Notes: generated by a model not told the origin, from the letters alone. Positions 2 to 54,660 are shown, numbered from the stretch's first letter. The stretch: DNA of 64,000 nucleotides from Dehalococcoidia bacterium (GCA_965221295.1 OZ244879.1:623252-687251), one strand, 5' to 3'. Program-made: numbers and translations.

Positions 2-619
2 GACCTGGGATTCTCATCGCGCCAAGTGAGCGCGGCCGGGTACGGCCTGTCATTCCAAACGGATGAACCCCTGGACATGAGGTACGACCCGGTGGGCGAA
101 ACGGCGGCGGATCTGGTCAACTCGCTGAACGAGCGGGACCTGGCCGACCTGATCTTCCGGTACGGCGAAGAGCGCAGGCGCCGGGCCATCGCCCGGTCCA
201 TCGTGAATAGCCGGCCCGTTGCAACCACCGCACAGCTGGCCCAGGCGGTGGCGCGGGCGACTGGTGGCCGACGCGGCGGCCGCAACCCGGCGACTCGCAC
301 GTTCCAAGCGTTGCGCATCGCCGTGAACCGGGAGCTGGATCACGTGGCGGCCGGGTTGGACGCTGCTGCGGAGCTACTGAAACCCGGCGGGCGCCTGTTG
401 GTAATCAGCTACCACAGCCTGGAGGACCGGTTGGTCAAGGACTGGATGGATCGGGAGACGGCGACGTGCGTTTGCCCCCCCGACCTGCCGGTTTGCGTAT
501 GTGAACGGCAACCGCGATTCCGGACCGCGCGTCGTCGCGCTGTCCGACCTTCGGAAGACGAGCGCGCCGCCAACCCCCGTAGCCGGAGCGCCCGACTGCG
601 AGCAGTGGAACGGCTATGA
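2..619 (+). CDS. rsmH: 16S rRNA (cytosine-N4)-methyltransferase RsmH/MraW, C-terminal part (5' end outside window)
   Basis: The frame is open from the window edge (DLGFSSRQVSAAGYGLSFQTDEPLDMRYD, ...ISYHSLEDRLVK). These are typical RsmH motifs. The gene lies directly upstream of ftsA. Confidence 0.85.
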   Translation, partial: DLGFSSRQVSAAGYGLSFQTDEPLDMRYDPVGETAADLVNSLNERDLADLIFRYGEERRRRAIARSIVNSRPVATTAQLAQAVARATGGRRGGRNPATRTFQALRIAVNRELDHVAAGLDAAAELLKPGGRLLVISYHSLEDRLVKDWMDRETATCVCPPDLPVCVCERQPRFRTARRRAVRPSEDERAANPRSRSARLRAVERL

Positions 620-695
620 ACCGCCGGTGGTCGGAGCGGCTCCGTCGCCTGTAGGAACACTCTGTAGGAACACTGGGAGAGAGGAAACGTCGAGC

Positions 696-2156
696 ATGGC
701 AAGGGAACCGATATTCGCCGTAGTTGACATCGGAACCAGCAAGATAGTGTCGATAGCCGCCAGGCTGGGGCCAGAGGGCGAGCTCAAACCGTTGGGTGTG
801 GGCGTGGCGCCGTCCCTTGGCGTTCAACAGGGAGTAATCGACGACTTCAAATCGGTTCAGGAGGGCATCAGAGAGAGTCTCGACGAATGCCTGCGGTACA
901 TGGGTCGCAACTCGCTTTCCGGGGTTTACGCCGTGGTCAACGGGGAGCACCTGACGGGTCGCAATTCCTCGGAGGGATTGAGCAACGACGTGGAACCGGT
1001 CGCGGTGACCGAACGGCGCCTGCGTTCCCTGATCAGCGAGGCGGCCGGCGCGCTGCGCGAAGAAGCCGATAGCAAGAGCCAGCAGACGCTGCATGTCATC
1101 CCCATGCGCTACCGGCTGGACGGCGTTGAAGGCGTGCGCAATCCCACCGGACTGCGTACCAACGACCTGCAACTGGAAACCCACATAGTGCGCGGCTTGT
1201 CGATCCCACTGGACAACATCGCTCGAGCCTTGCAGTCGTGCAAGACGCCGGCCCAGGGCTTGGTGGCCCATCCGCTGGCCTCCGCTGAGGGCGTGCTGAC
1301 CGCGGACGAACGCGAGATGGGCGTTGCGGTGGTTGATATTGGCGCGGGCACGATGAAGGTCGCGGTGTATCGGGGCGGCACGCCGTGCCACTCATCCGTG
1401 GTGGCCATGGGCGGCAATCAGTTGACCCGCGACCTGGCAGTTTCTCTGAGAATCCCGTACCAGATGGCGGAGGAACTGAAAATCGAGCAGGGCCACGCGC
1501 TACCGGACGAATTGTCGTCCAACGAGGATGTTCTGCTGCCGGACACCCAGATGCATCCCAAACGGACGATGCAACGCAGAGAACTTTGCGAACCGTTGTA
1601 CCTGCGCTGCTTGCAGATGCTCAAGCTGGTTCACGCCGAACTGTCCAAAGCCGAATCTTTGGACCTGCCGGGTGGGATTGTTCTGACGGGCGGAGGCGCC
1701 AAGATGCGCGGGTTGGCGGAGATGACCTCCCGCGGGTTTGGGACGCCGGTGCGCATCGGCGCGCCGCTGTGGTATGCGGGGTTGCCCGAATCGCTGCGAC
1801 AGCCCGAGTTGGCCGCGGCCCTGGGGACTCTGCAATGGTCGGTGAAGCACCGGCATCTGTCCGACCCGGGCCATGCCAATCGGGGCCTTGCAGACCGGGG
1901 TCATGCCAATCCGGGCCATACCGACCGGGGCCATACCGACCGGGGCCACGCCGACCGGGGCCATGCCAACCGGGACCATATCGAAGACCGCGACGTGGAC
2001 AAGACAGGGAAGGGCTGGTCGCCCCGCTCTCTGTTTCGCCGTCCTTTCGCCAAGGTTGGCGCGGCCGGAACTTCTGGAGACGCCCCCGCCGAGACGCTCA
2101 ATGCCGAGACGTTCAATGCCGAGACGCTCAGAGCCGAGACGCTCAGAAACGATTGA
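696..2156 (+). CDS. ftsA: Cell division protein FtsA with a repeat-rich C-terminal extension
   Basis: ATG at 696 gives MAREPIFAVVDIGTSKIVSIAA..., an actin-like ATPase pattern (VVDIGAGT, LTGGGAKMRGL). It lies upstream of ftsZ. The ORF-track start at 501 is probably too early. Confidence 0.85.
   Translation: MAREPIFAVVDIGTSKIVSIAARLGPEGELKPLGVGVAPSLGVQQGVIDDFKSVQEGIRESLDECLRYMGRNSLSGVYAVVNGEHLTGRNSSEGLSNDVEPVAVTERRLRSLISEAAGALREEADSKSQQTLHVIPMRYRLDGVEGVRNPTGLRTNDLQLETHIVRGLSIPLDNIARALQSCKTPAQGLVAHPLASAEGVLTADEREMGVAVVDIGAGTMKVAVYRGGTPCHSSVVAMGGNQLTRDLAVSLRIPYQMAEELKIEQGHALPDELSSNEDVLLPDTQMHPKRTMQRRELCEPLYLRCLQMLKLVHAELSKAESLDLPGGIVLTGGGAKMRGLAEMTSRGFGTPVRIGAPLWYAGLPESLRQPELAAALGTLQWSVKHRHLSDPGHANRGLADRGHANPGHTDRGHTDRGHADRGHANRDHIEDRDVDKTGKGWSPRSLFRRPFAKVGAAGTSGDAPAETLNAETFNAETLRAETLRND
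1861..1980 (+). repeat. Eight in-frame 15-nt tandem units (pentapeptide G-H-x-D/N-R) inside the ftsA 3' region
   Basis: Read directly as consecutive 15-nt units such as ccgaccggggccata. They translate to PGHANRGLADRGHANPGHTDRGHTDRGHADRGHANRDH. Confidence 0.9.
2088..2147 (+). repeat. Four in-frame 15-nt tandem units (AETLN-like) at the extreme 3' end of ftsA
   Basis: gccgagacgctcaat, gccgagacgttcaat and gccgagacgctcaga (twice). They translate to AETLNAETFNAETLRAETLR. Confidence 0.9.
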
Positions 2157-2210
2157 CCAACGAAAGCAACCAAAGCGCCCAATCGCGCCGACATCAGGAG
2201 GAACCACGAA

Positions 2211-3353
2211 ATGATTTTCCCCGACAGTTCCGCATCATGGGAACCGGCTGCCGGTTTTGAGGAGAGCGACGGCATGATCCCAGAGATCGGTCGTGGAGTT
2301 CCGCTCATCAAGGTGATGGGTGTCGGCGGCGGAGGATCCAACGCGGTCAGCCGGATGTACAAGGACAAGCTGCCCGTGGTGGAGTATTACGCCCTGAATA
2401 CCGACGCCCAACACCTGGCCCGGTGCGACGTGCACTACCGGATTGCGTTGGGTCGGAACTTGACTCGCGGCCTGGGCGCCGGCGCGCAACCGGAATTGGG
2501 CCGGCAGGCTGCCGAGGAATCGCGGTCTGAAATTGAGCAGGCCGTAAGCGGCGCCGACATGGTGTTCGTCGCCGTGGGCATGGGCGGCGGAACCGGCACC
2601 GGCGCGGCCCCGGTGGTGGCCCAGATCGCCAAGGAAAGCGGCGCCCTCACCATCGCCGTGGTGAGCCGTCCCTTCGGCTTCGAAGCCCAGACCCGCCGGC
2701 GCAACGCCGAGGACGGCTTGGAAAAACTGCAAGACCACGTGGACACCATGATCGTGATTCCCAACGACCGTCTGCTGGCCCTGAACGAGGAACAGGCCGA
2801 CTCCTATTCCTGGGAGGACGCCCTGAAGTTGGCCGATTCGGTGCTGCATCAGGGCATCAGCGCCATTGCCGAGGTGGTGACCGTTCCGGGCGAAATCAAC
2901 GTTGACTTCGCCGACGTCAAGACGATCCTCACCGGAGCCGGACAAGCCTGGCTGTCCATAGGGCGAGGCCGGGGAACCGACCGGGCGCGAGACGCCGCCC
3001 GCCAGTGCACCGCAAGCCCGATGCTGGACATGTCCCTGGAAGGCGCGCGTCGGATCCTGTTCATGCTGACGGGCGGCAATAACCTGTCGCTGCAGGAAGT
3101 GCAGGAAGCGGCGGCGGTAATCGAAGAACTGGCGGATCCCAACGCCAACATCATCTTCGGAACCAACAAGGACGCCCGATTGGACGACGAGGTGAAGATG
3201 ACCATGGTGGCGGCGGAATTCCCGGTGGCGGCGCCAGCTGCCGAGGACGATATCGCCAAATTGCTGGACGAGATGGAAATCCCCGAACGTAGCGACTTCG
3301 AACTGCCCACGTTCCTACAGCATCGCCAGAACCGCAGAGGCTTTTACCGCTAG
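2211..3353 (+). CDS. ftsZ: Cell division GTPase FtsZ
   Basis: Contains the tubulin signature GGGTGTGAAPV and the N-terminal VMGVGGGGSNAV. An AGGAGG sequence lies about 10 nt upstream of the ATG at 2211. Confidence 0.95.
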   Translation: MIFPDSSASWEPAAGFEESDGMIPEIGRGVPLIKVMGVGGGGSNAVSRMYKDKLPVVEYYALNTDAQHLARCDVHYRIALGRNLTRGLGAGAQPELGRQAAEESRSEIEQAVSGADMVFVAVGMGGGTGTGAAPVVAQIAKESGALTIAVVSRPFGFEAQTRRRNAEDGLEKLQDHVDTMIVIPNDRLLALNEEQADSYSWEDALKLADSVLHQGISAIAEVVTVPGEINVDFADVKTILTGAGQAWLSIGRGRGTDRARDAARQCTASPMLDMSLEGARRILFMLTGGNNLSLQEVQEAAAVIEELADPNANIIFGTNKDARLDDEVKMTMVAAEFPVAAPAAEDDIAKLLDEMEIPERSDFELPTFLQHRQNRRGFYR

Positions 3354-3390
3354 GCTCGGCGCCAAACCCGGTCGTTTTTCGACTGCTGAG

Positions 3391-3424
3391 GCCCCGGCTC
3401 CCGCGTGGAGCCGGGGCTTTTCGG
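3391..3424 (+). terminator. Intrinsic terminator after ftsZ
   Basis: GC-rich hairpin gccccggctcc / ggagccggggc followed by ttttc. Confidence 0.6.
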
Positions 3425-3522
3425 TGTCGGCAAAACCGGAACTGCCGGAGCGTTCTGCCCCGGGCCCGGTATGGCCGTCCAATGCTGGCCCAAAAATCGC
3501 TTAAATTCCCAGGCGGCACAAA

Positions 3523-3553
3523 TTGACACGCTCTTTAGGGGTTGGTCTATAAT
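3523..3553 (+). promoter_or_regulatory. Candidate sigma-70-type promoter upstream of nrdR
   Basis: TTGACA at 3523-3528 and TATAAT at 3548-3553. The 19-nt spacer is longer than optimal. The site lies in a locally AT-richer stretch. Confidence 0.4.
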
Positions 3554-3558
3554 CCCGC

Positions 3559-3606
3559 ATACAAGAAATTGTGGTATTTTCAGCCGAAGGCACAATATAT
3601 TCGGTT
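3559..3606 (+). promoter_or_regulatory. Two candidate NrdR boxes
   Basis: atacaagaaattgtggt and gcacaatatattcggt each resemble one good half of the published NrdR-box palindrome (acaCwAtATaTwGtgt). Their starts are about 31 nt apart, which matches the usual tandem-box spacing. Confidence 0.4.
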
Positions 3607-3649
3607 TACTAAAATTGTTTGAGAATTCGACCAAAAGGCAGCCAACTCC

Positions 3650-4195
3650 ATGAAATGCCCCTACTGCGAAGATAATCAGAGCAAGGTTACCGACTCCCGG
3701 GACGCCGACAACGGCATCCGCCGCCGCCGCGAATGCCTGTCCTGCGGGCGCCGTTTCACCACCCACGAGCAGGTGAGGCTGCCGGCGTTGCTGGTCGAAA
3801 AACGGGACGGGCGGCGGCAGGAATTCGACCGCGTGAAACTCCTCGCCGGGGTCAACATGGCCTGCACTCGCCGGCCCATACCTCGGCGCGACGTGGATCG
3901 GTTGATCGACGACATCGAGTCAGAACTGCAACGCCTGGGCAGCGGCGCCGTGCAATCCAAAGACCTGGGGCTGATGGTGCTGGAACGCCTTCGGCCGATG
4001 GACGAAGTGGCGTACATGCGTTACGCGTCGGTTTACTACGACTTTCAAGACGCCGCTGATTTCGAGGAGCGGGCTCGCACGCTGAGGGACGGCCAACCCG
4101 AACCGTTGCTGAGCTTGGCCGCCATTTCCAGCCAGCGCGCCCGACCACGGCGCGCCACCCGACGGGCCGGTTCAGCCAACCGGTCCAAGAAGTAA
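3650..4195 (+). CDS. nrdR: Transcriptional repressor NrdR
   Basis: N-terminal zinc ribbon MKCPYC...SKVTDSR...RRRRECLSCGRRFTT followed by an ATP-cone region. Confidence 0.95.
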   Translation: MKCPYCEDNQSKVTDSRDADNGIRRRRECLSCGRRFTTHEQVRLPALLVEKRDGRRQEFDRVKLLAGVNMACTRRPIPRRDVDRLIDDIESELQRLGSGAVQSKDLGLMVLERLRPMDEVAYMRYASVYYDFQDAADFEERARTLRDGQPEPLLSLAAISSQRARPRRATRRAGSANRSKK

Positions 4196-4228
4196 CCAAC
4201 CCAATCCACGGCTTCAGCCACCGTTGCC

Positions 4229-4552
4229 GTGGAGGCTTTCCGCAATGCTATCTGCTCGCCAACACCAACTCCAATGGAGGAGCTTCACACCATCATGGGC
4301 AGCAGCATTCAGTACTCCGCCTTTACCAGGCTATTGACCTACAACAATCGGGTTCACGACATGGAGGAGATGCTACGGAAGATGTGGGTCCCGTCGGACT
4401 GGACAACCGGCGACGCGGACAACGGTTCATCGTGGATACCGAATCCATTTGCCGAACTGCAAGACGACATGGACCGCGAGTCTCGCGCCTGCCTGGTGAG
4501 TTGCTGGGCAGCCTTGCCGATCCAGCGTGAGGAAGACGACCTTTTCGCCTGA
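4229..4552 (+). CDS. Hypothetical protein (start uncertain; the ATGs at 4274 or 4295 are also possible)
   Basis: The ORF has protein-like, non-shadow composition and lies between nrdR and nrdJ. No family was recognised. Confidence 0.4.
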   Translation: MEAFRNAICSPTPTPMEELHTIMGSSIQYSAFTRLLTYNNRVHDMEEMLRKMWVPSDWTTGDADNGSSWIPNPFAELQDDMDRESRACLVSCWAALPIQREEDDLFA

Positions 4553-4655
4553 CCCACCAGGAACCGCGACCCGATCCGACTCGACTCGGCGCGCCGACCC
4601 ACCGCGTTTTCGGTTCGCGCGTCGACCAGGGGCCAAAACCCCGGAGTTTCAATTG

Positions 4656-5102
4656 ATGCAGGAAATTGTTCAGTACAACGTTGAAATCAATTGCGGCCCG
4701 TGCCCGGAAGGGTGCTTGTCGCGAATATCCCGGCGGCTGCGCGCGGCGTTCCCAGTAACCAGCTGCCGCAGCACCAGCAACGGTTTAGAGATGCGAATGG
4801 TCTCAGGCCGCCGATTCGCGGACGGAGCGTTGAAGGACTTTGCGGATCTGGTTGGAGAGACGCTGACCGGCTTCGGTATCGTCATGACCATGGGCGTGGT
4901 GCGGCTCGTGACGCGAAGCAAGACCTTCCGCGTCGGCGCCCTGCAGCGGGCCCAAGACCTTGCCGCCAACCTCACCGGCATCGACTGGAGGCCAGCGCGT
5001 GAGGTTCCGGTGCTATATTTCTACAAGGGGTTGAAGTTCGATCTGGAGATGTCCGCGCGGCTGCAAGCCCTGAACCATACGGAAAGAGCCAGCGCAATTT
5101 AG
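4656..5102 (+). CDS. Hypothetical protein with N-terminal CGPC motif, possibly a glutaredoxin/NrdH/thioredoxin-like redoxin
   Basis: The ATG at 4656 is preceded by GGAG. The product starts MQEIVQYNVEINCGPCPEGC..., a strand followed by CxxC as in Grx/NrdH. Later, REVPVLYFYKG resembles the cis-Pro loop of the thioredoxin fold. The gene lies immediately upstream of nrdJ. Confidence 0.5.
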   Translation: MQEIVQYNVEINCGPCPEGCLSRISRRLRAAFPVTSCRSTSNGLEMRMVSGRRFADGALKDFADLVGETLTGFGIVMTMGVVRLVTRSKTFRVGALQRAQDLAANLTGIDWRPAREVPVLYFYKGLKFDLEMSARLQALNHTERASAI

Positions 5103-5115
5103 CAGGGAGGAAATC

Positions 5116-8100
5116 GTGGAGGCGAGGGCAACGAGCATGACGCAGCAGGTGAGCGGCGACCAAAAATCAAGCGACCCGAAATCATCGGCGCAGCGACGCA
5201 TTCGAGACGCGATGACCGCGGCGGGCATCGCACAGTCCTATGGCGAACGCACCGGCGAACTGACCGACAACGCCCGTGTGGTGCTGCAACGGCGATACCT
5301 AGCCAAGGACCGGGAAGGCAAGGTGTTGGAAGATCCGGAAGGGATGTTCCGCAGGGTCGCGCGCAACCTCTCCCAGTCGGACTTGGAATACGGCGCCACC
5401 GAAGCCGAACGCCAGCGCGTCGAGGATGAGTTCTACCGGGTCATGCGTCGGCTGGAGTTTCTGCCCAATTCGCCCACCCTGATGAACGCGGGACGGGAAC
5501 TGCAACAGCTCTCGGCCTGTTTCGTTCTGCCCGTTGAGGACTCTCTGGACTCGATTTTCACCAAGGTGAAGCAGACTGCGCTGATTCACAAGAGCGGCGG
5601 CGGAACCGGCTTCGCCTTTTCTCGCCTGCGCCCAGAGGGAGACGTGGTTGGTTCAACCGGAGGCGTGGCCTCCGGACCGGTGAGTTTCATCAACGCCTTC
5701 GACGCCGCCACCGACGTGGTGAAACAGGGCGGGACGCGCCGGGGCGCCAACATGGGCATCCTACACGTCACCCACCCCGACATCATGGACTTCATCACGT
5801 CCAAAGAGGACGGACAGCGCCTCAGCAACTTCAACATCTCGGTGGCGGTAACCGAGGATTTCATGCGTCGGGTGGAAAACGACCAGGCTTACGACCTGGT
5901 GAATCCTCGCACAGGACAAATCACCGGACAGCTCAACGCCCGCGAGGTCTTCGAACGCATGACTGAGCTGGCCTGGCGCACCGGGGATCCAGGCATCGTC
6001 TTCCTGGACCGTATCAACCGGGACAACCCGAACCCTCAGTTGGGGGACATCGAAAGCACGAATCCGTGCGTGTCCGCCGACACCTGGGTGCAGACTGCGG
6101 ATGGCCCGCGGCAGGTGGTGGAGCTGGTCGGCGTTCCCTGCGCCGTGATGGTTGATGGCGAGGCCCACGACACTGGCCGGCAGGGATTCTTCCCAACGGG
6201 CGTCAAACCCGTTTTGCGGCTGGCCACCGAAGAAGGCTACAACCTACGGCTAACGGAGGACCACCCAACGCTTCGCGTGAACGCCGACGCTGGCGCCGGT
6301 TCCGGGCGCGCGTGGGTCCCCGCCCGCGACCTGCGACCCGGCGACGAGATTCAGCTCCATGACCATCGCAACATTGCCAGCTGGCCCGGCCCGTATAGCG
6401 AGCGCGAAGGATACCGCATCGGCGCGCTGATGGGGAACGACGCCCTGTCCGAAAATCGGGCGCCGCTCGGTTTCGGGACGCGCCAAGGGTTCCCCAGCGG
6501 AACCGACCAGACGCACGGAGCCGCTCCCGTCATGGAACGAACCGCGGCGGCCGTCCAGACTCGCCATCGCCGCAACGCCCTCGATGGCTCCATGGACGCG
6601 CCGGGAGTATCCCAACGCCAGCCCGGCTTGGGCGCAGCGTCGCTACTGGCGCTGGAAGTGGGCATGGCCCCAGGACGCAAGACCATTACGCCGGCAATGG
6701 AGCGCGCCTCCAGCGACTTCTATCGCGGTTTCCTGCGCGCGCTCTTCGACGCTGACGGAACGGTCAACGACGCGCCGGCGGATGGCCTCAGCGTTCGCTT
6801 GTCCTGGAGCGATGCGCCCTTCGATGCGTCCTTCCTTGAAGCGGCGCAACGGATGTTGCTGCGGCTGGGCATAGCGTCGCGGCTGCGCAACCCAAGCCAC
6901 CCGTCTGGCGCTGGGACATTGTCGGATGGCCAGCGGAACCCTGTCCCTGGCCCGATGGGAACCGAACCCGTAGGAACCAAACCCATGGGAACCAAACCCA
7001 TGGAAACCAAACCCGAATTGGCTATTGCCGGCGAGAATATCGCCCGCTTCGCCGCGACCGTCGGATTTTCCGACGTGGACAAGCAGACGCAGCTCGTTGG
7101 ATCGCTCGCCGCCCACCGGCCCGGTTTCAGCGAGGAACGCTTCGTTGCGCGGGTACAGTCGCTGCAACCGGACGGCTGCGAGGCGGTCTTCGACGTTCAG
7201 GTGCCCGGCGTCAACGCTTTTGACGCCAACGGCCTCTACGCCCACAACTGCGGGGAGCAACCCCTGCTGCCCTATGAATCCTGCAACCTGGGTTCGCTGA
7301 ACCTGGCGCGGATGGTGCGGTACGACGGGGTCGGCGCCGAAATCGATTGGGAACGAATGTCGGAGGTTATCGAGACGGCGGTTCACATGCTGGACTGCGT
7401 CATCGATATGAACGACTACCCAATCGATGAGATCGCCGACATGAGCCGTCGGACGCGGCGCATAGGTCTGGGTGTGATGGGCTGGTCGGACCTGCTGATT
7501 CAGATGGGCGTTCGCTACGACAGCGAAGCGGCGCTGGAACTGGCCGAAGAGGTGATGAAATTCATCCAGGAGGAGACTTACCGCGCCTCTGAGCGACTAT
7601 CCGAAGCGCGCGGCCCCTTCCCGGAATGGGAACGAAGCGTGTACAGCCGCGGCCCGAACCAGCGCCACATGCGGAACTCGGCCCCGGTCACCATCGCGCC
7701 CACGGGCACCATCAGCATCATCGCCGGAGCGTCCAGCGGAATCGAGCCGCTGTTCGCGTTGTCCTACGTGCGCAACGTGATGGACAACACCAGGTTGGTG
7801 GAGGGCAACAACTACTTCGAGGCGGTGGCCCGCAACGAAGGGTTCTACTCTGAAGAGTTGATGGAGCAGCTGGCCGCCGTGGGGTCATTGGAACATCTGG
7901 ACGTGCCCGCCTGGGTGAAGGAAGTCTTCAGGGTCTCGCACGACATCGATCCCCGTTGGCACGTCAAGATGCAGGGAGCCTTCCAGAAATATACCGACAA
8001 CGCGGTGTCCAAGACGATTAATTTCCCACACGACGCGACGGTGGCCGACGTGGCCGAGGCGTATCGCTCGGCGTATGCGCTGGGCTGCAAGGGAATCACG

Positions 8101-9324: not shown

Positions 9325-9873
9325 ATGTCTGCTGACAACATCATCCTGGTAGGGTTCATGGCCACCGGCAAGAGCCACGTCGGCCGCCTGATCGCCCGGC
9401 TGACTGGCCGGCGTGTGGCGGACATCGATGAAGAAATCGTGCGGCGGGCCCACAAACCCATCCAGGACATTTTCTCCCAAGACGGCGAGGCCGTTTTCCG
9501 GGCCATGGAGCGACACGCGGCCCTGACCCTGTGCGAAGGCGGCAACAAGGTGATTTCGGCCGGCGGCGGCGCTTTCGCACAGGAACTCACCCGTCAGATT
9601 CTACTGGAGAGCGGCACGGTTTTTTGCCTCACCGCGCAACCGGAAACCATCCACCATCGCATCACGCGAGGCAGCCCGAACGCCGCGGTTCGGCCCATGC
9701 TGGCGGGCGGCGACCCTCTGGACCGCATCCGCGACCTGCTCCAGGAACGCGCCGAAGCCTACGCCCACGCCCACTATTCCGTCGCCACCGACGACCGCAC
9801 GCCGGAGCAGGTGGCGGAGGAAGTCCTGCGCATTTTCGATCAGACCGCCTCGGGCTGCGATTCCAGTGGTTGA
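9325..9873 (+). CDS. aroK: Shikimate kinase
   Basis: P-loop LVGFMATGKSHVGR and typical size. The gene sits in an aro gene context. Confidence 0.9.
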   Translation: MSADNIILVGFMATGKSHVGRLIARLTGRRVADIDEEIVRRAHKPIQDIFSQDGEAVFRAMERHAALTLCEGGNKVISAGGGAFAQELTRQILLESGTVFCLTAQPETIHHRITRGSPNAAVRPMLAGGDPLDRIRDLLQERAEAYAHAHYSVATDDRTPEQVAEEVLRIFDQTASGCDSSG

Positions 9874-9877
9874 CGGC

Positions 9878-11398
9878 ATGATGATCGCCCACCAGTGGCA
9901 ACCGATCACCCCGCTGTCAGAGGATTGCGGCTACGATTTTTCCGAAATCGACGCCCGGCAACGGCGGGGGACTGCCGTTCGCAGGATCTTTCAGGAAGAA
10001 CGGCCCGACGCTTACCAAGCGTTCCTGGATCGTCTGGATCGTAGCGGGGCTATCGAAACCGGTAAGATCGAAAGGCTGTACATCCTGTCCGAAGGCACGA
10101 CTAAAACGCTGATCGCGCGCGGCCTTTCGGCTGACTTAATTGAACACGGATCAACGAACAAAGACCCCCAGGAACTGGTCAGAATTTTGCAAGACCATGT
10201 GGACGCTGCAACTGGAGTCTACACCGCAATCAAGGAAGGTCGGCCGATTTCACGCAGCGCGATCCGTGAGATTCACCAAGTCCTCACCAGAAACCAACCG
10301 ACCTACGCGGCTGTTGACCAGTTCGGCAAGCAGTTCGACGCCCAGCTGGAACGCGGCGCATTCAAAAAGTTGCCAAACAACCCGACTCGTCGCGACGGGT
10401 TGATCCACGAATTTTGCCCACCGGAACAGGTGGATAGCGAGCTGGACAACTTGCTGGAGTGGTACCACGATTACGTGCAGCGCCCCGATAGGTATCATCC
10501 GCTGCTCACGGGAGCATGGCTCCATCATCGCTTTACCCAAATTCATCCCTTCCAGGACGGCAACGGCCGAGTGGTCCGCACGCTGCTGACCTGGCATTTG
10601 GCCCGTGAAGGCTATCTGCCTGTAGTCGTGAAAGAGGCTGATCGAGTCCATTACTTGGCGGCCCTTGAAACGGCCGACGCCGGCAACCTGCGTCCATTTG
10701 TCGAACTACTGACGCAGCTGCAATCGAGCGCCATATCGGAAGCTTTGGATTTTGCTCTGGGGGAGGCTGACCCATCAGAACCAGTCGGCCTCGTTGACCA
10801 GATCCTGGATAATGTAGTCGCGCGGATCGAACGTGGGGATGCAGTCCGGGCGGCCCAATTGCGCGCGGCCAACACCATTGCTGCGTCACTCCGAGACACC
10901 GCTGGCGCAACATTGGAGACGCTGGGCAGCCAAGTCGCGACACGGTTGGGCGACGCGGGGCGAACCGTGGTGCCAGAGATCATCAATGGCGGCCCGGAAG
11001 AACGAGGATACTGGTACCGCCAACAAGTGATTCAAACCGCACGGAAGTCCGGTCATTGGGTGAATCTGAATGAATCCAGATTCTTCGTTAGGCTCGCCCT
11101 AACGCCGGAACCTCGGTATGGCCAACCGCGGCTAGTTTTCGTGATATCGCTGCATCACGTTGGGCGCAGATTGTCGGGGGTGATGGCGGCAACCGCATTC
11201 GCCACCGTTGAGCGTCAACCTCCGGACGCTGCTGAGTACGTTGCCGGGGCCGATGATCCGTCGTTCATGGACTGCACGTCGGAACCATTTGTCTTCACTG
11301 GAGAGGATGACCCCGATTCACTGACTGCCGACTTTGCTACATGGACCCAACTCCAATTCGCCATCGCGTTGCGCGAGTGGGGCGAATACCTAACCTGA
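9878..11398 (+). CDS. Fic/DOC family protein (probable AMPylase) with an uncharacterised C-terminal region of about 230 aa
   Basis: Carries the canonical Fic motif HPFQDGNGRVVR. The ORF overlaps the aroK stop and ends 35 nt before the aroB start. Confidence 0.85.
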   Translation: MMIAHQWQPITPLSEDCGYDFSEIDARQRRGTAVRRIFQEERPDAYQAFLDRLDRSGAIETGKIERLYILSEGTTKTLIARGLSADLIEHGSTNKDPQELVRILQDHVDAATGVYTAIKEGRPISRSAIREIHQVLTRNQPTYAAVDQFGKQFDAQLERGAFKKLPNNPTRRDGLIHEFCPPEQVDSELDNLLEWYHDYVQRPDRYHPLLTGAWLHHRFTQIHPFQDGNGRVVRTLLTWHLAREGYLPVVVKEADRVHYLAALETADAGNLRPFVELLTQLQSSAISEALDFALGEADPSEPVGLVDQILDNVVARIERGDAVRAAQLRAANTIAASLRDTAGATLETLGSQVATRLGDAGRTVVPEIINGGPEERGYWYRQQVIQTARKSGHWVNLNESRFFVRLALTPEPRYGQPRLVFVISLHHVGRRLSGVMAATAFATVERQPPDAAEYVAGADDPSFMDCTSEPFVFTGEDDPDSLTADFATWTQLQFAIALREWGEYLT

Positions 11399-15189: not shown

Positions 15190-15777
15190 TTAGGCAGCGA
15201 CCCCCTGCAACGCGGCTACGATGTCCGGCATCACCGAATCGACCCGGCGCTCGATGGCCTCGGGATCCAGCGCCGCCACCGGATGTTGCAGATACACCGA
15301 ACCGGCGTAGTCGGCCCGGCCGAGGGACACGATGTGCTGCTCTGCCGCGGTTCGGAAAGCCTGCGTGTGCACCACCACCGTCTTCACGCCACGGTCTTCG
15401 AGTTCCACCGCGTCGCGCAAACTGCGCGCCACACAGCTTCCTCAATCGCCAATCGCCGTCACCACGAAGTCGCACTCCGCCAATTGGTCGATGATGTCAG
15501 GCGCGGCGGGAGCCGAGAATACCCACTTGGATAGCGTCACGGTTTCGTCAATTCCGTACCCGTCGGATAGCCTCCGCCGGATCGCTTCCAGTATGACGTC
15601 GGCGTTGCCCTTCCGGTTGTCCAGGAACCCGCCGGTCAGGCCCTCCAGGGTCTCCAACGGATTTGCCCGCCGGCGTTCCGGCTCCTCCTGGCGATCCGTG
15701 GGGTCCACCAGGCCCAACTCGGCCATGCGCGTTAGTGAATCGGCCATCTCAACCATCCTGCGAACTGTGTTCGTCAA
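15190..15777 (-). CDS. UGSC-family selenoprotein (in-frame TGA at 15442-15444 read as selenocysteine)
   Basis: The track ORFs 15442..15777 and 15190..15432 are in the same frame, separated only by TGA GGA AGC TGT. The joined reading is ...VVTAIGD-U-GSC-VARSL..., which contains the UGSC motif. The start codon is uncertain (TTG at 15777 or a downstream ATG). Confidence 0.7.
15408..15432 (-). promoter_or_regulatory. Candidate bacterial SECIS hairpin
   Basis: On the minus strand, about 10 nt after the UGA, gtggcgcgca gtt tgcgcgacgc forms a stem of about 10 bp with one mismatch and a G/U-containing apical loop. Confidence 0.35.
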
Positions 15778-15847: not shown

Positions 15848-16909
15848 TCAGTTTACCAGGGCCGAGGTGATCCGCGATCCCCACCCGGGGATATACACGG
15901 AATGCCGTCCGGGTCCCCCGGCAACCATTATATGGATATCTTCTGGGCGGCGCACCAGGGGAACCATGGCGTCGTCGTCATCGCGATCGATCCAGCGCGG
16001 CCACAGGGTATTCCGGTGGGTGTGGCGGCCGTGGATGCCGCCCAGCTTCAGCAGCGACAGCGGTTGCCGCGCCAGCTCGTACAGGTAGGAACGCGCGTCG
16101 TTCTTGCTCCATCCGGCGCCGGCGATGATCTCGGCGTGTTCCGGGCCCAGGATCAGCAGCACGTCGCCCATCACGTTGATGTTGTTGCATCCTGGAATAG
16201 CCATCGAAACGGCGAAGGTCGTCAGCAGGTCCCTGGGATTGTCGGCTCCGTGGTTGTTCAGGTTGTGCGGAGCCTCGGCGGGATGCGTCGTCACCACCGA
16301 CTGCTGGGCGTCGTAGCCCCGTTCCACGTGGTACGGTTCCCACGGGTTGGCCGCCTCGTTTTCGGCGATGCAGTAGGTGAACTTCCCCGGATGCCCAAAG
16401 GTGGCCCGGTCTTCGTCCCCGGGCAACGCGCCGCCCAGGTTGGTCAACGCCAATTTGACGGCCCGGCCGATGGTGGCGTTGGCCCGGTTGCCCTGTCCGA
16501 AGCAGTTGCCCCCGGAGTTCATCTCCAACTCGTTGGCGATTGGTCCGTTCACCACCACCAAGGGCGTGGCGATGTGGGTGGAACACTGCACCGAGGCCAG
16601 GTTGAAGCGCGGCAGCAGCAAAGCCTCGATGGCCGCGATGACCACCGGAAAATAGTCCGGCAGGCATCCCGCCATCACCGCGTTGGCCGCCAGCTTTTCC
16701 ACCGTGGCGCGCCCGCCCCGGGGCGGAACGACGCCCACAGTCTCCAGCGCCGACCGGCCCGAGGCCTCCACGAAGGCGCGCACCCGTTCCACGGTGGGCG
16801 GAACCACAGGCAACCCGTCCGTCCATCCCGCTTCGTAAGCCAGGGCCAGGGCTTCGTCATCTTGGTAGATTGGCCCAGATTCGTTCGCAGATTCATTCAT
16901 CGCCGTCAC
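15848..16909 (-). CDS. Conserved hypothetical protein (353 aa)
   Basis: Long ORF with non-shadow composition (GWTDGLPVVPPT, SVQCSTH, GQGNRANATIGRA). It lies between the enolase-superfamily gene and the UGSC gene on the same strand. No family name was recalled. Confidence 0.7.
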   Translation of the reverse strand: MTAMNESANESGPIYQDDEALALAYEAGWTDGLPVVPPTVERVRAFVEASGRSALETVGVVPPRGGRATVEKLAANAVMAGCLPDYFPVVIAAIEALLLPRFNLASVQCSTHIATPLVVVNGPIANELEMNSGGNCFGQGNRANATIGRAVKLALTNLGGALPGDEDRATFGHPGKFTYCIAENEAANPWEPYHVERGYDAQQSVVTTHPAEAPHNLNNHGADNPRDLLTTFAVSMAIPGCNNINVMGDVLLILGPEHAEIIAGAGWSKNDARSYLYELARQPLSLLKLGGIHGRHTHRNTLWPRWIDRDDDDAMVPLVRRPEDIHIMVAGGPGRHSVYIPGWGSRITSALVN

Positions 16910-24204: not shown

Positions 24205-25625
24205 TTCTGTCATTGCGAACCTTCCTCTACTGTCATTGCGAGCGAAGCGCGGCAATCTAGTGGGTCGCAACCAACGGCCGCTGGGCTCCGCCACCCTACG
24301 GTCGTTCGCCCAGGAATCGAGATTGCCGCGGCCTTCGGCCTCGCAATGACGGTTGCTATGGTCGGTCATTGCGGGCCTTCCTCTACTGTCATTGCGAGCG
24401 AAGCGCGGCAATCTAGTGGGTCGCAACCAACGGCCGCTCGGCTCCACCATCCTACGGTCGTTCGCCCTGGAATCGAGATTGCCGCGTCGCTAACGCTCCT
24501 CGCAATGACAATTGCTATGGTCTGTCAATGCGGGCCTTCCTCTACTGTCATTGCGAGCGAAGCGCGGCAATCTCGTTGACCGCAACCAACGGCCGCTCGG
24601 CTCCGCCATCTCACGGTCGTTCGCCCAGGCATCGAGATTGCCGCGTCGCTACCGCTCCTCGCAATGACAGTTGCTATGGTCGGTCATTGCGAGCCTTCCT
24701 TTACTGTCATTGCGAGCGAAGCGCGGCAATCTAGTGGGTCGCAACCAACGGCCGCTCGGCTCCGCCACCATACGGTCGTTCGCCCAGGCATCGAGATTGC
24801 CGCGTCGCTACCGCTCCTCGCAATGACAGTTGCTATGGTCGGTCATTGCGAGCCTTCCTTTATTGTCATTGCGAGCGAAGCGCGGCAATCTCGTTGGCCG
24901 CAACCAACGGCCGCTCGGCTCCGCCACCCGACGGTCGTTCGCCCAGGCATCGAGATTGCCGCGTCGCTACCGCTCCTCGCAATGACAGTTGCTATGGTCG
25001 GTCATTGCGAGCCTTCCTTTATTGTCATTGCGAGCGAAGCGCGGCAATCTCGTTGGCCGCAACCAACGGCCGCTCGGCTCCGCCACCCGACGGTCGTTCG
25101 CCCAGGCATCGAGATTGCCGCGTCGCTACCGCTCCTCGCAATGACAGTTGCTATGGTCGGTCATTGCGAGCCTTCCTCTACTGTCATTGCGAGCGAAGCG
25201 CGGCAATCTCGTTGGCCGCAACCAACGGCCGCTCGGCTCCGCCATCTTACGGTCGTTCGCCCAAGCATAGAGATTGCCACGTCGCTAACGCTCCTCGCAA
25301 TGACAATTGCTATGGTCGGTCATTGCGAGCCTTCCTTTACTGTCGTTGCGAGCGAAGCGCGGCAATCTCGTTGGCCGCAACCAACGGCCGCTCGGCTCCG
25401 CCATCTTACGGTCGTTCGCCCAGGCATCGAGATTGCCGCGTCGCTAACGCTCCTCGCAATGACAGTTGGGGGGCGCTCTTCGCAATGACAGTTGAGGGGC
25501 GCTCCTCGCAATGACCAGAACCGAGGGGCCGAATGAGCGACCGCAGGAAGGCGCCTGGCGGCCTTCGTCCTCGCAATGACAGTTGCTATGGTCTGTCATT
25601 GCGAGCGGAGCGCGGACAGTCGCCG
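24205..25625. repeat. Tandem array of a 159-bp palindrome-containing unit (8 full units plus degenerate fragments)
   Basis: Units start at 24231, 24387, 24546, 24705, 24864, 25023, 25182 and 25341. The first spacing is 156 nt and the rest are exactly 159 nt. Each unit has nested inverted repeats tgtcattgcgag...cgcggcaatctcg / cgagattgccgcg...ctcgcaatgaca around a conserved core of about 57 nt. Confidence 0.92.
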
Positions 25626-26756: not shown

Positions 26757-27037
26757 ACGTTGTTTGCTGTGATGGGGAGTAGTAAGCGGGGTACGGTCGC
26801 GTAGAGAGCCGACGGCTGGTGAAAGTCGGTGGACGGAACCGCAGAACTCGCCCCGGAGCGTCCGGCCTGAGAGTCCGCCTGATTCAGGCGACGATTGTAG
26901 GGCGGGCGGGTCGGCCCCGATATAGGCTGTGCACAAAGAGTTTCGAGTCTGGCCCGAACTTGAGGGCCGGCGCGGAAAAGAAGGGTGGTACCGCGGGAAT
27001 TCAAACCCGTCCCTTCGGGGGGGCGGGTCATTTTTAT
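26757..27037 (+). promoter_or_regulatory. T-box leader (tRNA-sensing riboswitch), probable Leu (CUC) specifier, with terminator
   Basis: Contains an AGAGAG bulge, a GGTGAAAG distal loop and GAA-CUC-G at 26844-26850. The conserved T-box sequence aagGGTGGTACCGCGg lies at 26981-26996. The terminator acccgtccc ttcg ggggggcgggt is followed by cattttt. Confidence 0.8.
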
Positions 27038-27072
27038 GCTCCGCCGATGCAGGATCCAGGCAACACCAGGAG

Positions 27073-28788
27073 ATGCCAACGATGGAAATGACCGGGGCCG
27101 AGATAATTTGCGAAAGCCTCCTGCGCGAAGGCGTGGACACCATATTCGGGTTGCCCGGCGGCGCTGTACTGCCTTTTTACGGCGCGCTTTCCGGATACCC
27201 CCAGTTGCGCCACATCCTGGTACGGCACGAACAGGCAGCCGCTATGGCGGCCGACGGTTACGCCCGCGCCACCGGCAAGGTCGGCGTGTGTTCGGCGACC
27301 TCCGGACCCGGCGCTACCAACCTGGTCACTGGGTTGGCCTCAGCCCAAATGGACTCGGTGCCCATCGTCTGCATCACCGGACAGGTGCCCCGTCCCGCCA
27401 TCGGCCGCGACGCGTTCCAAGAAACGGACATCACCGGCATCACCCTGCCCGTCACCAAGCACAACTACCTGGTGATGGACGTGCGCGACATCGCCCCGGT
27501 GATCAAAGAAGCGTTCTACATCGCCCGAACCGGACGGCCCGGACCGGTTCTGATCGATGTACCGAAGGACATCTTGGCCGGCGAAAAGACCGAATTCGAA
27601 TGGCCCGAGTCAATCGAGTTGCCGGGCTACACCCCGCCAGGCGAAGCCGAACCCGCGCAGGTGGCCGCCGCCGCCCGTTTGATCAACGAAGCCGAACGCC
27701 CTGTGATCCTGGCTGGACACGGTGTGCTGATTTCCCGGGCCTGGGATGAACTGCGGCAGCTGGCAGAGAAGGCGCAGATCCCGGTCATCACCACTCTGCT
27801 CGGCATCAGCGCTCTGCCCACTGACCACATCCTCAACATGGGTATGCCGGGGATGCACGGCATGGCCTACGCCAGCTTGGCCATAGACCGCTCCGATCTG
27901 GTGATCGCCCTGGGCGCGCGGTTCGACGACCGGGTAACCGGCCGCCTCTCCGACTTCGCGCCCCAGGCCAAGATAATCCACTTCGACGTCGACCCCAGCG
28001 AGTTCAACAAGAACGTGGTGGCGGACGCGCCGGTGCTGGGCGACCTGAAAGCCAGCCTGCGCGCCCTGATCGGCCAGGTTCAATCAAACGTGCACCTGGA
28101 CTGGATCAGGGAGACCGACCGGATGCGGGCCGAGCATCCTTCCCTATTCATACGCAAATCCGATGAACTGCTGCCCCAGCAGGTGTTGAAGGAACTGTCG
28201 GACTTCACGGGCGGCGAAAGCATTATCGTCACCGGAGTTGGCCAGCATCAGATGTGGGCGGCTCAGCACTACGGATACAAAGAACCCAATTCCCTGATCA
28301 CGTCGGGCGGCAGCGGAGCCATGGGGTTCGAGGTGCCGGCCGCGTTGGGAGCCAAGGTGGGCCGGCCCGACAAGACCGTGTGGTCCATCGCCGGCGACGG
28401 CGGGTTCCAGATGACCCTTTGCGACCTGGCCACCGCGGTGGAGAACAACATCGACGTGAAGTACGCCATCCTGAACAATGGGTCGTTGGGCATGGTGCGA
28501 CAGTGGCAGGACTTCTTCTACGAAAAAGACTTTTTCGCCACCATCTACAGCGGCAACCCGGACTTCGTAAAACTTGCCGAAGCCTACGGCATCCGGGGCA
28601 TCCGGGTAACGAAGCAGGAGGAAGTCGCCGGGGCGATTCAGGAAGCCATGGAGACGCCCGGCCCGGTGGTGGTGGATTTCGTCGTGAAAGAAGACGAGTT
28701 CGTGTACCCGATGATCCCGGCCGGCGAATCGGTGCACGAAATGCTGGAAGAGCCCGAAGTTGAGGGGGTCGCCATTGAAACCGCATAA
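27073..28788 (+). CDS. ilvB: Acetolactate synthase large subunit (start at 27073 or 27082)
   Basis: Starts MTGAEIICESLLREGVDTIFGLPGGA and carries the TPP-binding motif GDGGFQM...NNGSLGMV. Confidence 0.92.
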   Translation: MPTMEMTGAEIICESLLREGVDTIFGLPGGAVLPFYGALSGYPQLRHILVRHEQAAAMAADGYARATGKVGVCSATSGPGATNLVTGLASAQMDSVPIVCITGQVPRPAIGRDAFQETDITGITLPVTKHNYLVMDVRDIAPVIKEAFYIARTGRPGPVLIDVPKDILAGEKTEFEWPESIELPGYTPPGEAEPAQVAAAARLINEAERPVILAGHGVLISRAWDELRQLAEKAQIPVITTLLGISALPTDHILNMGMPGMHGMAYASLAIDRSDLVIALGARFDDRVTGRLSDFAPQAKIIHFDVDPSEFNKNVVADAPVLGDLKASLRALIGQVQSNVHLDWIRETDRMRAEHPSLFIRKSDELLPQQVLKELSDFTGGESIIVTGVGQHQMWAAQHYGYKEPNSLITSGGSGAMGFEVPAALGAKVGRPDKTVWSIAGDGGFQMTLCDLATAVENNIDVKYAILNNGSLGMVRQWQDFFYEKDFFATIYSGNPDFVKLAEAYGIRGIRVTKQEEVAGAIQEAMETPGPVVVDFVVKEDEFVYPMIPAGESVHEMLEEPEVEGVAIETA

Positions 28789-33593: not shown

Positions 33594-34593
33594 AATTTGG
33601 AGCCCTCGAACTGCTGGGCTGGCGAGTCGATCTCCCAGTTAAGCCACGGGGCGCCCCGAAAACCAAGGTGCAGCGCCCACAAGGCCATTGGGCGTCCGCA
33701 AAGCTATTGGGCGCCCGCAAGGCTATTGGGCGACCATCGCGCCAGCCTCATGCGGACTGGGAAAACAAGCAAAAATGGTGGAGACGGGGGAGAGTCGCAC
33801 TCCCCGTCCAGAAACTCCCCTGATCGGATCTGCTACAAGCTTGTTCGGCGCTTTAGTCTCGCTGCCGCCGACTCTCGCCGACGGGATTCGGCAGCGGCCA
33901 GCCGATGAAATCTGTGGCCCCGGTTATCGGCGTCGCTGGGGTAGCATCCCGGAATGATTGGTCGTCCGCTTCCCGGCTTCCGGGCCTACCGGTGGCAGAC
34001 GTAGCCGCGACTAGGCGGCTAGAGCGAATTCACGTTCGCCAGTTAGTTGTTCGCCACCGTTTTTAGCGAGGGCAGCGGCAGCCTCGGCCTGCAATCCGTC
34101 AGAGACCGCTCCTGTCGAACCTACGCGTCCCCAACTATCGATCCCATCAACCAAAGCGGCTCATGGGAACTTCCATATGATACCACCTCCGTGGCCAGGT
34201 AGGCAAAAGAGCCGTGCGCGTCCGCGCCACCGTTTTCCAACACCCGCGATCCCGGGGCGCGTTTCCCCCGCAGCCATCGCGAGCGGCGCCGCCTCGTTGC
34301 GATTGCGACGAGCGTTACCCACGGAGCCATCGCAGGGAGACGCCAGCGCGGGGGCATCCGTTGGCCGCAGGAACGACGCAAAGAGCGAACGGCCGTTATC
34401 GATGGCCAACGATCTTGATGACGAACGATCTAAATGACCACCTAGGACGCTGGCCACCCAAGACGCTGCGCTGCGTCGCCCGCATGGGAGACGCAAGGCG
34501 TGATCCCCCCGCCAAGACGGCCCAAAGCTGCCTGTGCCGACAGCCGACTGGGACGAGCGCTGGCAGGTTCAAAAAATCAGGGCGAATTCGGTG

Positions 34594-34709: not shown

Positions 34710-36222
<1,513 letters not shown>

Positions 36223-54303: not shown

Positions 54304-54319
54304 CAATGAGAGCGCTACC

Positions 54320-54415
54320 TACTGTTCCTACGCCGGCATTACCCGAGTCAGGTACAGACGGTCGGCGACGAATTTGGTCGCCCTCTCAGCCTGGTTTCCC
54401 CAAGCTCCCGCCAGA
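54320..54415 (-). promoter_or_regulatory. TPP (THI-box) riboswitch
   Basis: The minus strand reads ...ggggaaaccaggCTGAGAgggcgacc...gaccgtctgtACCTGActcgGGTAATGCCGGCGTAGGAAc. This matches the conserved CUGAGA and ACCUGA...GGAUAAUGCCAGCG...GGGA cores. Confidence 0.8.
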
Positions 54416-54660
54416 AATCGCGTCAGGCATTCGATTGTCCCTTGAATGTAGCGCTTTGAGCTGCTCAAGTCAACGTGAACCGATTGTTTCGCGACTGGGC
54501 CGTCCCACCGTACCGTTGCCCTGGAGTCAAGCCGTTGGAACCGCGCGGGACCGCCCCAAGGTCTCGCCATCGCGAAGGGGGATGCGACGCGGCGACGTGA
54601 CGCAACGCTAACCATCGCTAGGAAGGAAGGGAACGGCCGTTGGTCATGGTCGATGAGTTT

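Follow-up and report, generated by a model that had tools for sequence, protein, structure and literature searches.

A UGSC-family gene with a probable selenocysteine codon in a Dehalococcoidia bacterium and its association with a conserved 350-amino-acid partner

The DNA analyzed here, referred to as the window, is a stretch of 64,000 nucleotides from a Dehalococcoidia bacterium (GCA_965221295.1 OZ244879.1:623252-687251). Two mechanically called ORFs on the minus strand (15442..15777 and 15190..15432) lie in the same reading frame, and a TGA is the sole stop codon between them. The codons that follow the TGA are GGA, AGC, and TGT. Read continuously, the minus strand encodes AECDFVVTAIGD up to the TGA and GSCVARSLRDAVELEDRG beyond it, which across the UGA gives VVTAIGD-U-GSC-VARS, with U standing for selenocysteine (Sec). 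The initial annotation had joined the two ORFs into one selenoprotein gene on the strength of the TGA-GGA-AGC-TGT junction and its U-G-S-C reading. Sequence and translation confirm the common frame and the motif, whereas the joined product of 195 amino acids that had been proposed requires correction. The TTG at 15777 is the start of the mechanical ORF and nothing else. A database protein of 101 amino acids (P0001), which matches the N-terminal part of the reading as far as AIGD with 100% identity, begins with MADSL, so that the ATG at 15747 is the likely start codon and the product would contain 185 amino acids, with Sec at residue 102. In the public record for this protein (NCBI and ENA), the gene call ends at the UGA. 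The coordinates of the gene, its codon of interest, and the neighboring features are collected in Table 1.

Table 1. Features at the UGSC locus, in coordinates of the 64,000-nucleotide window.
Feature	Position	Strand	Details or basis
UGSC-family selenoprotein gene (predicted)	15190..15747	-	ATG 15747-15745 to TAA 15192-15190; 185 codons, Sec at codon 102
In-frame UGA, putatively decoded as Sec	15442..15444	-	Conservation of the aligned codon, Cys homologs, downstream dN/dS
SECIS-like hairpin	15409..15433	-	Fold and 72-sequence alignment; conserved core 15412-15430; apical loop AGUUU 15419-15423
Invariant G23/U24 of the hairpin	15422/15421	-	72 distinct sequences
Conserved partner gene, 350 amino acids, no known family	15848..16900	-	Immediately upstream of and co-oriented with UGSC; TGA stop

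The geometry of this locus is common. A crude scan of the window, which has a GC content of 63%, yielded about 50 pairs of ORFs that share a frame, have coding-like GC3, and are separated by a single TGA. Judged by inspection alone, the pairs other than the UGSC gene resemble neighboring genes or frames antisense to real genes. It is therefore homology and conservation, rather than geometry, that carry the present case beyond chance.

When scored with Cys placed at the position of the UGA, the joined product matches the Pfam family PF24696 (UGSC) with 149.6 bits, the cutoff being 25, and the match spans positions 2-171 of the 172 in the profile. The match to NCBIfam NF041046, named "UGSC family (seleno)protein," reaches 121.1 bits (E = 3.8e-35; positions 4-147 of 147), 4 bits below the equivalog cutoff of 125. 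The identity that had been suggested from the motif is thus borne out, just short of the strict cutoff in the case of NF041046. The U/C-G-S-C motif that follows VVTA[IV]GD in this family is present at the conserved position, where the window reads AIGD-UGA-GSC. Scored alone, the N-terminal fragment covers positions 3-68 of NF041046 (38.1 bits) and the C-terminal fragment positions 70-147 (61.6 bits), which indicates that the two fragments are complementary halves of one domain and that the UGA occupies profile position 69.

UGSC-containing proteins were described from marine metagenomes in the GOS selenoproteome of Zhang and Gladyshev (PLoS Genet 2008, PMC2398784). In its passages on the family, that paper lists 255 Sec and 21 Cys forms and places UGSC among the most abundant GOS selenoprotein families, above all in non-marine samples (PMC2398784). 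The family is also included in the 2022 and 2026 reviews of prokaryotic selenoproteomes (PMC9312934, PMC13188914); the entry in the later one gives it with NF041046 as functionally uncharacterized (PMC13188914). The window copy has in common with the catalogued family a full-length domain, a U-G-S-C motif at the corresponding position of the profile, the alternation of Sec and Cys, an apparent intragenic SECIS, and a predominance of Sec forms (76 TGA and 4 TGC in the comparison described below, against the 255 and 21 given in the GOS passages of PMC2398784). It differs in an N-terminal extension of about 35 amino acids, which is no difference of kind. The locus is an ordinary member of the UGSC family; the family was already known and the copy is new.

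A protein search with the joined product returned 107 homologs. About 95 of these have been called as proteins of 101-107 amino acids that extend over no more than the first 55% of the query; the short homologs that we examined all end in VVTA[IV]GD. Full-length homologs (P0098, P0100, P0101, P0102, and P0104) read VVTAIGDCGSC through the same position. We also scanned at the DNA level, taking one genome per species, and found 80 loci, the best of them 85% identical; the window's own genome is not among them. TGA stands at the aligned codon in 76 of the 80 loci and TGC in the other 4, and every locus remains in frame for at least 70 codons past this codon (about 80-85 in most). This distribution, together with the GDCGSC of the full-length proteins, agrees with the earlier expectation that homologs carry Sec or Cys at the aligned position. 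The 80 loci are spread over Chloroflexota, Acidobacteriota, Burkholderiales, Rokubacteria, Binatia, Actinobacteria, and other groups. Among the carriers of TGA are Burkholderiales, Rokubacteria/Methylomirabilota, Binatia, Nitrospinaceae, Bacillota, some Actinobacteria, Dormibacterota, Vicinamibacterales, and Dehalococcoidia/SAR202 MAGs, the last being the closest (up to 85% identical). The four TGC loci come from Agromyces (two), Pseudoclavibacter, and Nesterenkonia.

The region directly past the UGA folds into a hairpin. A GC-rich hairpin had been noted at 15408-15432, about 10 nucleotides beyond the UGA; the structure is real, shifted by one nucleotide (Table 1), and its core begins 11 nucleotides past the UGA. 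We number its positions from the U of the UGA as 1 and describe it from a codon alignment of 72 distinct sequences that have the UGA. The stem is formed by positions 12-21 with 27-36 and closes a 5-nucleotide loop (positions 22-26). The fold of the single sequence (-30.9 kcal/mol, z = -1.78) is modestly better than that of shuffled sequences. Base pairing is kept in 82.5% of cells across the alignment, and in the upper five pairs (17-21 with 27-31) a single cell out of 360 is unpaired. Changes on both sides occur in seven of the ten pairs, as in 19-29 (UA 42, CG 28, GC 1), 21-27 (CG 68, GC 4), and 15-33 (GC 43, GU 13, AU 6). The covariation score of 0.259 was reached by none of 500 shuffles (0.172 +/- 0.010) and exceeds the scores obtained when the register was slid (0.001-0.146). 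Because the hairpin lies within conserved coding sequence, part of its conservation is at the level of the protein. Some compensatory changes alter the protein, as where UGC becomes UGG (Cys to Trp) together with a change of NUG to CUC in a Leu codon. G23, U24, and U26 are invariant in all 72 sequences, and the GU at positions 23-24 is maintained across codons for Ser (AGU, 69 sequences), Cys (UGU, 2), and Gly (GGU, 1), which fits selection at the level of the RNA. The AGU loop is missing from the four TGC loci, which have ACC, ACG, or UCG in its place, even where the GGCC/GGCC stem persists.

The SECIS of Escherichia coli follows the rule of a 17-nucleotide stem-loop at positions 15-31 in which U17, G23, and U24 are conserved and which lies 11 nucleotides from the UGA (PMC8659212). 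In comparing the hairpin with the SECIS of E. coli fdhF, we noticed both common features and differences. Each lies inside the ORF directly past the UGA with its core 11 nucleotides away, and G23 and U24 fall in the same register. The bulged U17 of fdhF has no counterpart here, position 17 being an invariant C that pairs with G31; the loop consists of 5 nucleotides (AGUNU), whereas that of fdhF is AGGUCU; and the clade to which the window belongs has a G.A mismatch at pair 16-32. No Rfam family covers the hairpin, either at the gathering threshold or at E <= 10. By its position and the covariation in the alignment, the hairpin sits where bacterial SECIS elements sit. The proposal that it serves as a bacterial SECIS has gained from the covariation, the invariant G23 and U24, and the E. 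coli register.

Taken together, these observations make it very probable that 15190-15747 on the minus strand is a single gene encoding a 185-residue UGSC-family selenoprotein, in which the UGA is recoded as Sec. The hairpin would recruit SelB-GTP-Sec-tRNA(Sec) to the ribosome, and translation would then continue for 83 more codons beyond the UGA. In the product, U102-x-x-C105 would have a selenol/thiol redox role.

The rival reading that survives best is one in which the UGA is read through as an amino acid other than Sec, by a near-cognate or suppressor tRNA (for Trp, Cys, or Gly), or is generally reassigned. It draws on the gene content of the window. ARAGORN detected no tRNA-Sec, and no tRNA genes at all, in the 64 kb, and tblastn with the SelA and SelB proteins of a Burkholderiales MAG (L044) found neither in the window, in agreement with the initial annotation, which had stated that the Sec machinery is not in this window. 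Chemically, moreover, Cys would be tolerated here. Against general reassignment stands the use of TGA elsewhere in the window. It is the commonest stop codon, ending 36 of about 61 putative genes, and the partner gene directly upstream closes with an ordinary TGA (ALVN-TGA), so that general reassignment is excluded. Against read-through by another tRNA stand the position of the hairpin and its G23/U24 loop, which are those of a SECIS bound by SelB, and the arrangement of the cassette in two relatives. In L044, selA (TIGR00474, 448 bits), selB (TIGR00475, 425 bits), tRNA-Sec, the partner gene, and UGSC follow one another in this order on one strand (32-4970); in a second Burkholderiales MAG (L048, 6001-9118), UGSC is closely followed by selA and selB. 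L044 is the only one of 60 loci scanned that has tRNA-Sec in its flanks. The cataloguing of UGSC as a selenoprotein family, in the passages cited above, argues in the same direction. SelA and SelB are reported to be enriched in bins of sponge symbionts and to co-occur in most of them (Slaby et al. 2017, PMC5649159), and several close relatives of the present locus are sponge-associated or SAR202 MAGs. Since selA, selB, and tRNA-Sec are not in the window, we infer Sec decoding in this organism from comparison with relatives. We nevertheless favor Sec, and consider non-Sec read-through or reassignment improbable.

A further alternative is that the gene is a pseudogene, in which a nonsense mutation changed the TGC of a Cys-type UGSC gene to TGA and from which a 101-residue fragment or nothing at all is made. 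Public gene calls do give only the 101-residue fragment, and the Sec machinery is missing from the window, as this reading would have it. The coding sequence past the UGA behaves otherwise. We compared its 79 codons with those of 29 close relatives and obtained dN/dS values of 0.04-0.18 at near-saturated synonymous divergence (pS 0.47-0.68, pN 0.05-0.15). The pooled pN/pS is 0.17 past the UGA and 0.27 for the 60 codons before it. Judged by this pattern of substitution, the segment past the UGA is under strong purifying selection and is translated, which excludes a pseudogene. The same TGA occurs in the great majority of loci across many phyla, and a covarying hairpin follows it; a decaying pseudogene would show neither the shared TGA, nor the selection, nor the hairpin. 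The reading as a pseudogene is thus effectively refuted, and we give it a very low probability.

An equally slight chance attaches to the idea that the locus encodes two separate small proteins, one of 101 amino acids from the N-terminal ORF and one of 80 amino acids from a GTG at 15432. The two mechanical ORFs are indeed separate, and each half matches the UGSC profile by itself. These matches, however, fall on complementary parts of a single profile, and the Cys-type homologs are all continuous polypeptides. The possibility raised with the original proposal, that homologs would show the halves to be normally separate proteins, finds no example among Cys-type relatives, in which they are never separate. 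The AF2 model of P0101 (see below) is one compact α/β domain with a central sheet that takes strands from both halves. The GTG at 15432 lies inside the stem of the hairpin, and a protein started there would lose the conserved GSC. Finally, a false stop produced by a sequencing or assembly error has a negligible probability, given that the identical TGA is found in 76 independent assemblies and that both NCBI and ENA contain the fragment with 100% identity.

To describe the fold of UGSC, we used an AF2 model of P0101, which among full-length Cys homologs is the nearest to the window protein, at 36% identity. The model has a pLDDT of 91.9 and a pTM of 0.85, and its elements follow in the order β1 (35-40), α1, β2, α2, β3 (93-99), α3 (102-117), β4, α4, β5, and α5. 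An invariant LDNxKxNA loop comes after β1. Cys101, the equivalent of Sec, caps helix α3, and the second Cys lies in the first turn of that helix; the U-G-S-C motif is thereby placed where strand 3 meets helix 3, at the N-terminus of the helix. The N-terminus of a helix is the usual place of a redox-active UxxC/CxxC pair. A Foldseek search of the PDB matched the model to flavodoxin-like proteins at TM scores of 0.4-0.5 (WrbA, lumazine synthase, FMN reductases, NQO1, and RpiB), and no thioredoxins were among the best 50 PDB matches listed. The predicted fold of UGSC is therefore a flavodoxin-like α/β fold with five strands. In its remarks on the family, the 2008 paper had guessed a thioredoxin-like fold (PMC2398784), which the flavodoxin-like matches and the lack of thioredoxins among the best 50 listed do not support. 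We reject the thioredoxin fold in view of the alternating β-α order of the model and its PDB matches, and retain the placement of the UxxC pair at the N-terminus of a helix.

The gene immediately upstream of UGSC encodes a protein of 350 amino acids. A homolog of this partner is adjacent to UGSC and on the same strand in 75 of the 80 loci, and three of the five loci without it (L036, L041, and L054) are contig ends. The partner lies upstream of UGSC in most loci and directly downstream in about 10, among them all four of the Cys-type loci. Its conservation exceeds that of UGSC, with identities of up to 93%. Across 52 members of the partner family there is no match to Pfam or NCBIfam even at E <= 5, and a search by sequence found no relative in the PDB. 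The family is nevertheless large: more than 8000 hits share words with the partner, all labeled "hypothetical protein," and representatives at 50% identity number 7294 with E <= 1e-3 and 2169 with E <= 1e-30.

The AF2 model of the partner (pLDDT 86, pTM 0.88) has no close solved fold in a Foldseek search of the PDB. The best match is the class I fumarase alpha 7xky_A (E = 6.9e-4), at a TM score of 0.25-0.3 and an rmsd of 16 Å. Among the Cys residues of the partner, Cys79 is present in 72 of 72 sequences, Cys177 in 67, and Cys106 in 42; D28, N132, R139, N141, R146, N154, D164, T167, E180, H191, and H255 are also invariant. These invariant residues look like the active site of an enzyme, rather than a three-Cys Fe-S site. 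We considered the partner as a hydro-lyase resembling class I Fe-S fumarate hydratase and rejected this assignment, given the TM score of about 0.25, the single invariant Cys, and the lack of a match between sequence profiles.

In many relatives, the two proteins are joined. A Bacillota locus (L063) encodes UGSC in its Sec form, a linker, and the partner in one frame of 567 codons. P0263 is a fusion of a Cys-type UGSC with the partner, and P0250 and P0297 are UGSC-partner fusions with variant motifs. Four other proteins (P0247, P0248, P0252, and P0258) start with the C-terminal half of the UGSC domain and continue into the partner, the form that gene calling would give to Sec-type fusions. In the loci and proteins compared, UGSC almost always travels with the partner and is often fused to it. 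A "UGSC/Unknown_1 fusion" is noted in the part of the 2008 paper that deals with UGSC (PMC2398784), and the fusions seen here probably correspond to it. Apart from that one remark, the passages on UGSC in the 2008 paper and in the two reviews contain no mention of the 350-residue partner cassette (PMC2398784, PMC9312934, PMC13188914). Two further forms were seen among these proteins and loci. P0245 and P0253 are tandem duplications of the partner of about 715 amino acids. In three Dormibacterota-type MAGs (L033, L034, and L035, at about 6286-6822), UGSC has an extra C-terminal CxxC domain of about 95 amino acids, which is weakly similar to the C-terminal domain of NifU (E = 2e-4).

Synteny and fusion are the two lines of evidence that bear on what the pair might do. 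They suggest that the most likely role of UGSC is that of a small redox subunit in a two-component enzyme, whose large subunit would be the upstream 350-residue protein with its invariant Cys79. It is tempting to go further and regard UGSC and its partner as one uncharacterized two-component (seleno)enzyme, widespread in environmental bacteria, in which the Sec-x-x-Cys pair of UGSC would pass on or take up redox equivalents; we put the chance that this fuller proposal is correct only slightly above even. PrdB and GrdB (Pfam PF07355), which are subunits of clostridial reductases, carry a UxxC motif in an α/β protein that is not a thioredoxin, and this protein serves as one component of a reductase with several subunits, whose genes are neighbors. 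They provide a working analogy for UGSC and its partner, with no claim of membership. PF07355 is absent among the Pfam matches of the joined product at E <= 1, and we thus detect no relationship in sequence; the partner, which is without any Pfam match, is unrelated to GrdE/PrdA.

For annotation, the consequence is that, in the public record, the genome of the window and about 95 relatives are given only a truncated "hypothetical protein" of the 101-residue type. The gene should be annotated as a 185-residue selenoprotein with a transl_except qualifier. The locus itself adds little to biology, the UGSC family having been catalogued since the 2000s. The leads that reach beyond a catalogue entry are the partner cassette and the revised, flavodoxin-like fold, along with the fixed AGUNU loop of the SECIS-like hairpin in the E. 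coli register. If UGSC and its partner do form a two-component enzyme, a defined catalytic partner would be at hand for an "orphan" selenoprotein that ranks among the most abundant in aquatic metagenomes, and UGSC would become experimentally tractable.

Several other features were recorded in the window. A full-length tmRNA lies at 33776-34132 on the minus strand (Rfam, 110.6 bits, model positions 1-374 of 374), where ARAGORN reported neither tRNA nor tmRNA anywhere in the window. The 16S rRNA gene is complete (34710-36222, plus strand), and the window contains no 23S, 5S, or tRNA gene; putative ORFs from the crude scan, which are unverified, begin at about 36505, after the 16S rRNA gene. The rRNA genes thus appear to be unlinked. 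A tandem array at 24209-25468 has a period of 159 nucleotides and 7.9 copies (94% matches, score 2149), with internal GTCATTGCGAGC repeats in its units, and a shorter array of 26-nucleotide repeats occupies 25448-25515. A T-box leader (26760-27017, plus strand, 97.4 bits) lies upstream of an ORF of 620 amino acids (26926-28788), and a TPP riboswitch is found at 54308-54421 on the minus strand (62.1 bits). An ORF of 510 amino acids (9866-11398, plus strand) contains a Fic/DOC domain (Pfam, 67.5 bits) and is weakly similar to effectors of the XopAC/AvrAC type.
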